DNA from: Octopus vulgaris
Lineage: Eukaryota
DNA: 64,000 nt
Assembly (NCBI GenBank): GCA_951406725.2
Contig: OX597815.1
Location: forward strand, 157,418,001 to 157,482,000
Direction of reading: 5' to 3'
Positions within the stretch are counted from its first letter, which is position 1; each line of letters begins with the position of its first letter. The translations under genes and the position numbers were made by a program. Shown here one piece after another: positions 24,520 through 26,719 of the stretch. A model generated the notes under the pieces. It was not told where the DNA came from and made no database searches. It worked only from the letters and a program-made list of their open reading frames with translations.

Positions 24520-24912
24520 CTAGCAGTATCGCCCGGCGTTGCTCGGGTTTGTAAGGGAAATAATTATATAAGCATTTTTAGAGATGTAAAGTATAATAGC
24601 CATCTCAATATGGCTAACCACAAAGGGGGAGGGATGTTACCGTAGCTTTTTACGTTCTGAGATTTAATAATAAATTTTAGAGAGTTACTTCCCTTATATA
24701 TGTCAAAAATGGATTAAAAATGGGAAAAATTGATGGTAAATTTTTTTTTAAATCGTAGACTCATCGTAGACGCGCGCTAATACCCAGACGGTATCGATAT
24801 GAATCACGACTAAGATACCCGGTATTGGTTAAACTGCACCGCAAAATGTGGGAGTAGTTAGGAATCTAAATCGTAGGAGACAGACACACAACCTCACTTT
24901 TATATATAAAGA
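24520..24912 (-). mobile_element. Non-autonomous Helitron, about 390 bp
   Basis: On the minus strand it starts A|TCTTTATATATAAAAG and ends with hairpin CCCGAGCAACGCCGGG followed by CGATACTGCTAG|T. It is inserted between A and T. Confidence 0.85.
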
Positions 24913-25079
24913 TTTCCTCTATTTACATAATATTGAGGTCTCTTTCTTTCTTTTGTTATCTTACTGTTTTTACCAATATACATATATATATATATATATA
25001 TAAATATATATATAGTTACAGAGATGTACTTGCATAGCAAGTGACTTGATCTGAGATCGTGTGCTGGAACGAAAACAGT

Positions 25080-25337
25080 TGCAGCGTTGAAGGTGTTTAT
25101 AAGCCATTTAAGAAACACACAAAAACCGTTAGATTCACTTCAACATTTAAATTTAATTTGTCAAAATATTTTCGTCGCTTTGAGACCGCGACCTGTTAGC
25201 ACGATATTTTTGTCAGTGAACAGGTCGTGGTCTCAAAGCGACGAAAATATTTTGGCAAATTAAATTTAAATTTTGAAGTGAATGTAACGGTTTTTGTGTG
25301 TTTCTTAAATGGCTTACAAACACCTTCCACGCTGCAA
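25080..25337. repeat. Palindrome with arms of about 118 bp and a 21-bp spacer, part of a PLE-like pseudo-LTR (25015-25337) bounded by TA-rich runs
   Basis: 25080-25197 is the reverse complement of 25219-25337. Confidence 0.92.
25208..25259 (+). ncRNA. Hammerhead-like motif with swapped G3-C8 core
   Basis: ttttgtca-GTGAACA-g-gtcgt-ggtctcaaa-gcgac-GAAA-atat-TT-tggcaaa. Stem I, stem II and palindromic stem III (AATATT) are all in register. Confidence 0.7.
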
Positions 25338-25424
25338 TATATATATGCACACATATATATATATATGTATGTATGTATGTATGTGTGTATATGTGTATGC
25401 ATGTATGTGTGTGTGTGCGTGTCT

Positions 25425-25636
25425 GTGCTTGTGATTGTCCTCCACCACTGCTTGACAACGAATGTTGGTTTGTTTACATCCCTGTCACCTAGTGGTTTGA
25501 CAAAGGAAACAGATAGAATAAGTACAATACTTACAAAAATAAAACTGGAGTTGATTCATTAAACTACAATTTTTCAAGGCATTGCCCCAGCATGGCCACA
25601 GACCAATGGCTGGAAAAAGCAGAAGAATAAAAGAAT
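25425..25636 (+). mobile_element. SINE family A 3' half, diverged
   Basis: TGCTTGACAACG..GATAGAATAAGTAC..CCAGCATGGCCACAG. Confidence 0.75.
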
Positions 25637-25689
25637 ACATTCTCTGCTTTGGTCTTATGTTCAAGCCATGAGAAAGCTTGAGTTTACAT

Positions 25690-26076
25690 GAGAAGGCCTA
25701 ACAGACCTGGTAGAAACAGCAGCCAAATCTCCCTCAAATCACACCTTACTGTCTTATGTATGTATATATATATGAGCCAATGAGGGGGACCTCTACATGG
25801 TAGCTAGACCTGGTAGAAATAGCAGCCAAATTTCCCCCAAATCACACCTTACTGTCTTATCTATGTATATATGTATGTATGAGCCTATGAGGGAGACCCC
25901 TACATGGCAGCTAGACCTGGTAGAAATAGCAGCCAAATTTCCCCCAAATCACACCTTACTGTCTTATCTATGTATATATGTATGTATGAGCCTATGAGGG
26001 AGACCCCTACATGGCAGCTAGACATGTTAGAAATAGCAGCCAAATCTCCCTCAAATCACACCTTACTGTCTTATCT
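25690..26076. repeat. 107-bp tandem repeat, about 3.5 copies
   Basis: ATGGyAGCTAGAC at 25797, 25904 and about 26010. The unit contains GAAATAGCAGCCAAATyTCCCyCAAATCACACCTTACTGTCTTA plus a TATG tract. Confidence 0.95.
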
Positions 26077-26719
26077 TTCTGCTACTTCGATATAGGTGTT
26101 ATATTCGTCGTAAAAAACTTTCCTGTCACACACTCACGCACACGCACACGCACACACACACACGCACCCTCACACACACACACGCGCGCACACCCACACA
26201 CACCCACTCACACACACGCACGTTAGCTTACAATTTTATTTATATATTTGCGTGTCTATGTGTGGATTGAGGAAGTGGGAGGCAGAGTGAAAGAATCACT
26301 CACTACAGTAAGTCAATTACTTTCATTTTATTCGTTGCCCACTGTGTGTGTGCGTTTGCGTGTGCTGTAAACCAGACTAAGAAAAGCATTTGACACACAC
26401 ACCAGAATGTGAGTTTTCTGTAAATTTTGCTTAATTGGAGTTTAAATTTTAAAAACTGGACCTGGCATGACGCGATGCATTGTACTCTTAAAAATGCAAG
26501 GTAAATTGTAATTGAAGAAATCCTATATTGTAGATTTGTATAACTCCCAAAGGGAGGCAGATAAAATCTGCCTTTTATAATAAGAGATATGATATAATAT
26601 AATATAATATAATATGACATTATATTATATTATATTATATTATATTATATTACAGATAAATTCCTCTATTTACATAACATCGGGGTCTCATTCATTCTTT
26701 TGTTGTCATACTATTATTA

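Follow-up and report, generated by a model that had tools for sequence, protein, structure and literature searches.

Within the window, i.e., the whole 64,000-nt stretch of Octopus vulgaris DNA that was analysed, a minimal type I hammerhead motif is found on the plus strand in one of two oppositely oriented pseudo-LTR copies of a Penelope-like element, and this pair of copies is in turn carried by a Helitron-type repeat of 2.07 kb with ends at 24520 and 26587. The features are listed below; the motif as a whole is defined by sequence, family alignment and pair counts, and its parts were read from the window sequence.

24520..26587, minus strand: non-autonomous Helitron-type carrier (5' TC, 3' hairpin followed by CTAG, A/T insertion), with the pseudo-LTR pair as cargo
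25016..25197, minus strand: inverted, 5'-truncated pseudo-LTR copy with a tail of ~57 nt, its ribozyme cut off before position 6
25198..25337, plus strand: pseudo-LTR copy of the Penelope-like family with the short 3' end (no tail), holding the ribozyme and the ORF start
25209..25259, plus strand: minimal type I hammerhead motif
25209-25215/25253-25259, plus strand: stem I, 7 bp
25216, 25221, 25222 and 25223, plus strand: core letters G3, C8 and A9 and an extra G, respectively
25224-25228/25238-25242, plus strand: stem II, 5 bp, closed by G10.1-C11.1
25243-25246, plus strand: GAAA
25246-25251, plus strand: stem III, 6 nt, self-complementary
25252, plus strand: U17, with the predicted cut at 25252/25253

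The core of the window copy reads G3 U4 G5 A6 A7 C8 A9, followed by one extra G, and the stems contain two G-U wobbles (at 25228 and 25255). A sequence-only reading of the window had described a hammerhead with a G3-C8 core at this site; the sequence that it quoted is found at 25208-25259, and the description holds family-wide, with core letters, stems, extra nucleotide and palindromic stem III all present. When compared with the minimal type I hammerhead, the conserved U4, G5, A6 and A9, G12, A13 and A14 as well as A15.1-U16.1 are all in place, and positions 3 and 8 are Watson-Crick partners, but with an identity that is neither the canonical C3-G8 nor the natural U3-A8. The NUH cleavage triplet is UUU, found in 76-77 of 77 family copies per column. 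This triplet had been called unusual, but it is ordinary, because among the 56 representative minimal hammerheads in the Fig. S3 text of PMC4209133, by our count, 24 have U17 and one, from Crassostrea, has UUU; the same representatives comprise 53 with C3-G8, three with U3-A8 and none with G3-C8.

An Rfam scan gave no match for the motif at gathering score, and a descriptor that allows any Watson-Crick 3-8 pair found one match in the window as compared to one in 60 shuffled windows. That the motif is a chance likeness within the palindrome of a DNA transposon, which the Helitron-type surroundings and the lack of an Rfam match might favor, is highly improbable given this shuffle count and 4,771 pattern matches outside the Helitron (the Helitron arms do not fit the pattern), and it is refuted by the copies that adjoin a Penelope-type ORF.

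Helitrons are recognized by a 5' TC, a 3' hairpin followed by CTAG, and insertion between A and T. At 30 loci of the carrier, an A flanks all 26 left ends found and a T all 18 right ends found, in line with a non-autonomous Helitron-type carrier. The 30 best loci all have the ~2-kb context in common at about 96-98% identity. Fixation of G3 and C8 in these 30/30 loci was therefore rejected as evidence for selection; it is uninformative, since conservation is equal over the full 2 kb and since likeness was the criterion by which the loci had been chosen. Also present in the Helitron are a 107-nt tandem repeat, which varies in copy number, and part of another dispersed repeat (together at window 25703-26076 and 25410-25640), and some Helitron copies are inserted side by side in tandem (L012, L019 and L024).

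The two arms of the palindrome are 119 nt each and 95% complementary. The left arm keeps C8 and the perfect partners and lacks positions 3-5, where the inversion junction cuts. The second arm had been cited in support of the motif; its perfect partners and its C8 are indeed present, but they offer no independent support, because both arms stem from one insertion, of which this arm is the inverted half. According to fold prediction, a transcript through the palindrome forms a single hairpin (-187.5 kcal/mol) in which the probability of stem II is 0, and the window motif in isolation favors a different fold (stem I 0.1, stem II 0.01); in a young solo unit both stems are predicted to form, with probabilities of 0.64-1.0. 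The window copy belongs to a pair of inverted pseudo-LTRs that a Helitron has captured and multiplied, and it is predicted to be locked in the hairpin and inactive as a ribozyme.

The source of the motif is a Penelope-like family. In all five long loci the G3-C8 motif sits ~1.0 kb behind an ORF that encodes a reverse transcriptase (RT) and a GIY-YIG endonuclease, and at L199 the layout is pseudo-LTR, ORF, pseudo-LTR, plus an inverted copy. The 1,025-aa open frame at L197 contains YVDD and PF01541 (the C-terminal GIY-YIG); Pfam gave no RT match for this ORF, and the RT motifs were assigned by eye; relatives that carry PF00078 were among weak matches. The closest named homolog is a protein of Octopus vulgaris. 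The ORF has its start within the pseudo-LTR, on the 3' side of the ribozyme, which by homology with L199 places its ATG at 25309 in the window copy. The pseudo-LTR unit of ~206 nt is mostly flanked by (TA)n and often arranged head-to-head. In a set of 90 copies, selected with a pattern that lies outside the ribozyme, the 3' ends form two clusters ~57 nt apart, and these two clusters constitute the tail signature of Penelope-like elements. In other words, the features expected of an EN+ Penelope-like element are found, i.e., a single ORF with RT and C-terminal GIY-YIG, partial-tandem pseudo-LTRs, an inverted upstream copy and an optional tail. In an element of this kind, the minimal type I hammerhead lies within the pseudo-LTR and is located at both ends of the RT-endonuclease ORF.

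A 784-aa Penelope-type ORF upstream of L063 was considered as the parent and rejected as a nested neighbour; 20 long copies of the 784-aa family and its relative lack such a motif. At the 20 loci L105-L124, which represent two young Penelope-type families apart from the G3-C8 one, both with open frames of 784 aa, the descriptor, applied to the ORF strand, found no minimal hammerhead in 19; the single match looks like chance. In the RT tree the G3-C8 family is distant from the local 784-aa family, the homologs in this tree being without named clade references. By its features the family is like the EN+ Neptune and Nematis clades as these are described in the parts of Craig et al. 2021 (PMC8557442) that were compared, i.e., a C-terminal GIY-YIG with two internal cysteines, a CX3CxxC linker, (TA)n targets, partial tandems, an inverted 5'-truncated copy and an optional tail. 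It is unlike them in having DKS for DKG and a tail of ~57 nt instead of 30-40, and the likeness is one of features.

Genomic copies had been expected to share G3 and C8, and this is the state of the family. A pattern with fixed flanks, applied to the whole 2.8-Gb genome, yielded a total of 5,698 matches, of which 5,268 have G3-C8 (reversed control pattern, 0), 289 have G3 with another letter at position 8, and 141 lack G3. The first 100 of these 141 comprise 64 with A3, 26 with T3 and 10 with C3, and C3-G8 is absent among them. The pattern that does not fit the Helitron arms, with its 4,771 matches, includes several loop-2 subfamilies, and G3-C8 is found in 95 of the first 100. The expected conservation of stem I is also seen, as no stem column differs between subfamilies: in 89 copies (the 90 picked by the pattern outside the ribozyme, with one duplicate dropped), 0/42 core and stem columns differ as compared to 17/129 others (p 0.006), or 12/129 others in a conservative recount (p 0.03). 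Contigs of two other organisms carry the G3-C8 motif in a loose-end consensus, and in assembled contigs from four sequencing runs no other letter at position 3 or 8 reached 10%.

Copies with G3-G8 number ~113 (an estimate based on 39 of the first 100 of the 289 matches), which is five to eight times the background for a C8-to-G change (9 in 2,490 cells); the corresponding number for G3-to-C is about 14. A single ancestral G3-G8 subfamily was rejected as the origin, as the copies are spread over several subfamilies; candidate causes of the excess are a copying hotspot, recombination or G3-G8 source copies. A G5-to-C change was noted in 3/65 copies.

A sister family, B, has a 1,312-aa ORF of about 53% identity and carries C3-G8 at the same place. 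In the RT tree, which is a quick tree of 49 proteins, the two families are sisters (SH-aLRT 99), and the branch between them is ~0.9 amino-acid changes per site. Cores that have neither G3 nor C8 and share the stem II closure gave 5,917 matches (control 168), with C3-G8 in 87 of the first 100 by hand count. C3-G8 also occurs, together with U17, in an old family, D, and the 3' strand of its stem I is the same as in the G3-C8 family; C3-G8 is carried, in all, by the sister RT lineage and by two older related families. Outside the ribozyme, the pseudo-LTR of the G3-C8 family is homologous to that of B and to one D copy (0/500 shuffles each), and three other copies tested gave no significant alignment.

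In an alignment of ten natural copies from four families, 99.1% of the cells are paired, as compared to 20-49% in slid controls, where the rows are related, one of them partial, and the shuffle test is not to be read as a probability. Both partners have changed in 5 of the 11 pairs, i.e., in two pairs of stem I, one of stem II, 15.2-16.2 and 3-8, the latter being CG in six copies and GC in four; U4, G5, A6, G12, A13, A14 and A15.1 are invariant in all ten rows. Relative to the homologous C3-G8 families the swap is compensatory, as had been proposed. It is a single event on one branch, and G3-C8 is a true natural covariation, because C3-G8 is found in sister and older families and because both partners differ between families in four helix pairs as well. 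The pairing in the ten copies, together with the absence of core and stem changes between subfamilies, also shows that source elements conserve the fold and, with it, the 3-8 pair.

A covariation that occurred once could also be coincidental, i.e., the changes at 3 and 8 may have drifted to fixation successively in a decaying ribozyme. Once position 8 changes, C is one of three possible letters, and the frequent C8-to-G changes in this context indicate that the site is mutable. Nevertheless, we consider drift unlikely, because along a branch of ~0.9 amino-acid changes per site, over which the flanking pseudo-LTR has become barely alignable, the other core letters and the helices were kept, and because no subfamily has changed in core or stems. 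The natural inversion of the 3-8 pair, with the C3-G8 sister as control, is phylogenetic evidence for selection on the active fold.

Sister family B, which is young and abundant (L202-L210 and L277-L305; at L203, for example, ~580 nt after the ORF stop), has C3-G8 but C9 in place of A9, which by hand count is seen in 65 of the first 100 of the 5,917 matches; older copies of the sister lineage keep A9. The prediction that the G3-C8 family is invisible to CUGANGA searches proved correct and extends to this sister, i.e., two of the larger hammerhead families in the genome, with about 5,300 G3-C8 and an estimated 3,800 C9 matches, fail this descriptor.

The largest survey of minimal hammerheads is reportedly that of Lunse et al. 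2017, with about 150,000 variants. In the parts of the literature searched, which included passages of PMC6155905, PMC6765202, PMC11014351 and bioRxiv 10.64898/2026.07.22.740005, G3-C8 is found as a laboratory variant only (PMC11167929, PMC8495972 and PMC3884650), and an earlier report of a natural G3-C8 hammerhead is possible. A close parallel is the hammerhead of the Anolis Penelope-like element Poseidon (Frangieh et al. 2024, PMC11167929), where either C3G or G8C abolished cleavage and the double mutant partly restored it. The statement that the double swap rescues activity thus stands for this element, but the rescue is partial both in Anolis and in PMC8495972. The swap is identical and occurs in a minimal hammerhead of a Penelope-like element in both cases, engineered in Anolis and natural and family-wide in octopus. 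Two fixed 3' ends (the tail) and uncut templates are also common to the two elements, but the octopus family probably belongs to another clade, with a linker zinc finger and an ATG 3' of the ribozyme.

Natural hammerheads with U3-A8 have been published (Perreault et al. 2011, PMC3088659; PMC4209133), including those of the Schistosoma Cercyon family (PMC4209133), and the octopus family is like these in that the 3-8 tertiary pair has covaried in nature. The U3-A8 form differs from C3-G8 by two transitions, such that position 3 remains a pyrimidine and position 8 a purine, whereas G3-C8 requires two transversions and inverts the pair. Metazoan Penelope-like minimal type I hammerheads (Cervera and De la Pena 2014, PMC4209133) are, as far as described in the sections compared, also located in both pseudo-LTRs, with an extra nucleotide between 9 and 10.1, G10.1-C11.1, a palindromic stem III, no evident loop 1-loop 2 contact, frequent U17, and many solo and opposite-strand copies. 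The octopus family is unlike them in its G3-C8 core pair and matches them in every testable feature except the identity of the 3-8 pair. In contrast to the units of non-LTR retrozymes, which are in tandem and whose transcripts are processed to circular RNA, the window copy is not tandem, and one tandem array is found elsewhere in the genome. This array consists of 30 copies of the G3-C8 family pseudo-LTR with a 166-nt unit at L427:2090-7030 (G000:C2 about 17,908,100-17,913,000); all 30/30 copies are G3-C8, and an inverted tail fragment is found at the array start.

The starts of the copies bear on how the RNA is used. Of the 90 copies, 46 begin at one of the first two positions of the unit, ~20 nt before G3, and only one of the 90 starts at the predicted cut, which indicates that the insertion templates were uncut RNA. 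Uncut templates would also be expected from a solo transcript of a ribozyme that is active only as a dimer, and the start counts thus do not decide on cutting. The pile-up of 5' ends (e.g., L198:7395-7425; window 25198) follows a sequence that resembles a branch point, a pyrimidine tract and AG, and this boundary sequence has 480 exact matches. In 25 of the 30 junction copies that start at the pile-up site, a G directly precedes the start. The unit start is either a start site with a cap-derived G or a splice acceptor; among the joints listed for the contigs from the sequencing runs, there was no splice joint into the unit start.

The reason why Penelope-like elements carry hammerheads is debated, in view of the low activity, the dispensability of cleavage in vitro, and the proposal that the ribozyme may be a parasite or a relic. 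Minimal hammerheads are described as cutting weakly, and as dimers (PMC4209133), and the Anolis Poseidon hammerhead cleaved only with protein (PMC11167929). The octopus motif, for which self-cutting is predicted, is likely a counterpart in nature of the swap that has been made in laboratory mutants. On balance we favor, by a modest degree, a family hammerhead that cuts RNA slowly after U17, and does so only when dimeric or when assisted by the protein that the element encodes. In such a mechanism, RNA of the source element would start upstream of the core by ~20 nt, stems I and II would form, and two copies would pair via the self-complementary stem III. The G3-C8 tertiary pair would position the 2'-OH of residue 8 as does C3-G8, and cleavage would either take off the first ~60 nt, ahead of the start codon, or divide tandem transcripts, as a side branch rather than as a required step of insertion.

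The claim that both positions changed together under selection for catalysis is retained in part. The data show that the fold, 3-8 pair included, is under selection, but selection for catalysis is only one reading of this and is weakened by the uncut insertion templates and by the loss of A9 in the sister family. The C9 of this young family speaks against a strict catalytic core in the clade, and the ~113 G3-G8 copies in several subfamilies also speak against cutting. These observations would fit a hammerhead fold, 3-8 pair included, that is kept as a structural element without a useful cutting rate, e.g., as a signal at the element's 5' end that serves protein binding, promoter function, splicing or translation. 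In line with such a role, uncut templates dominate, the sister family has fixed C9, G3-G8 copies are in excess, and the motif lies between the splice-acceptor-like or start-site sequence and the ORF start. For the Anolis element, the sections compared report insertion in vitro that is independent of cleavage and no RNA reads that ended at the cut (PMC11167929), and Cervera and De la Pena describe the activity as low and leave room for other roles (PMC4209133). On the other hand, the 3-8 pair is a feature of the active conformation (PMC3088659), such that a clean swap is hard to explain otherwise, and U4, G5, A6, G12, A13, A14 and A15.1 are invariant across the four families. A purely structural role is thus a serious contender, to which we assign well below even probability.

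Returning to the slow, assisted ribozyme, a further suggestion, which we put forward tentatively and consider rather doubtful, is that the family represents an active natural G3-C8 hammerhead from a Penelope-like lineage in which the protein-assisted ribozyme core ventures into states not tolerated by free hammerheads, i.e., G3-C8 in this family and C9 in the sister. If true, cleavage would be selected in these elements, and surveys based on CUGANGA would miss whole families. The inverted 3-8 pair, the C3-G8 sister lineage and the ready-made tandem array together allow a clean test.

A separate observation concerns an intronless dCMP-deaminase-like ORF of 182 aa (PF00383) on the plus strand at L052:1598-2146. 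Its start and the 5' end of a pseudo-LTR copy are ~35 nt apart, in a head-to-head arrangement, and the junction recurs 6 kb away in L354; this ORF is possibly a host mRNA that was copied by the Penelope-like enzyme.
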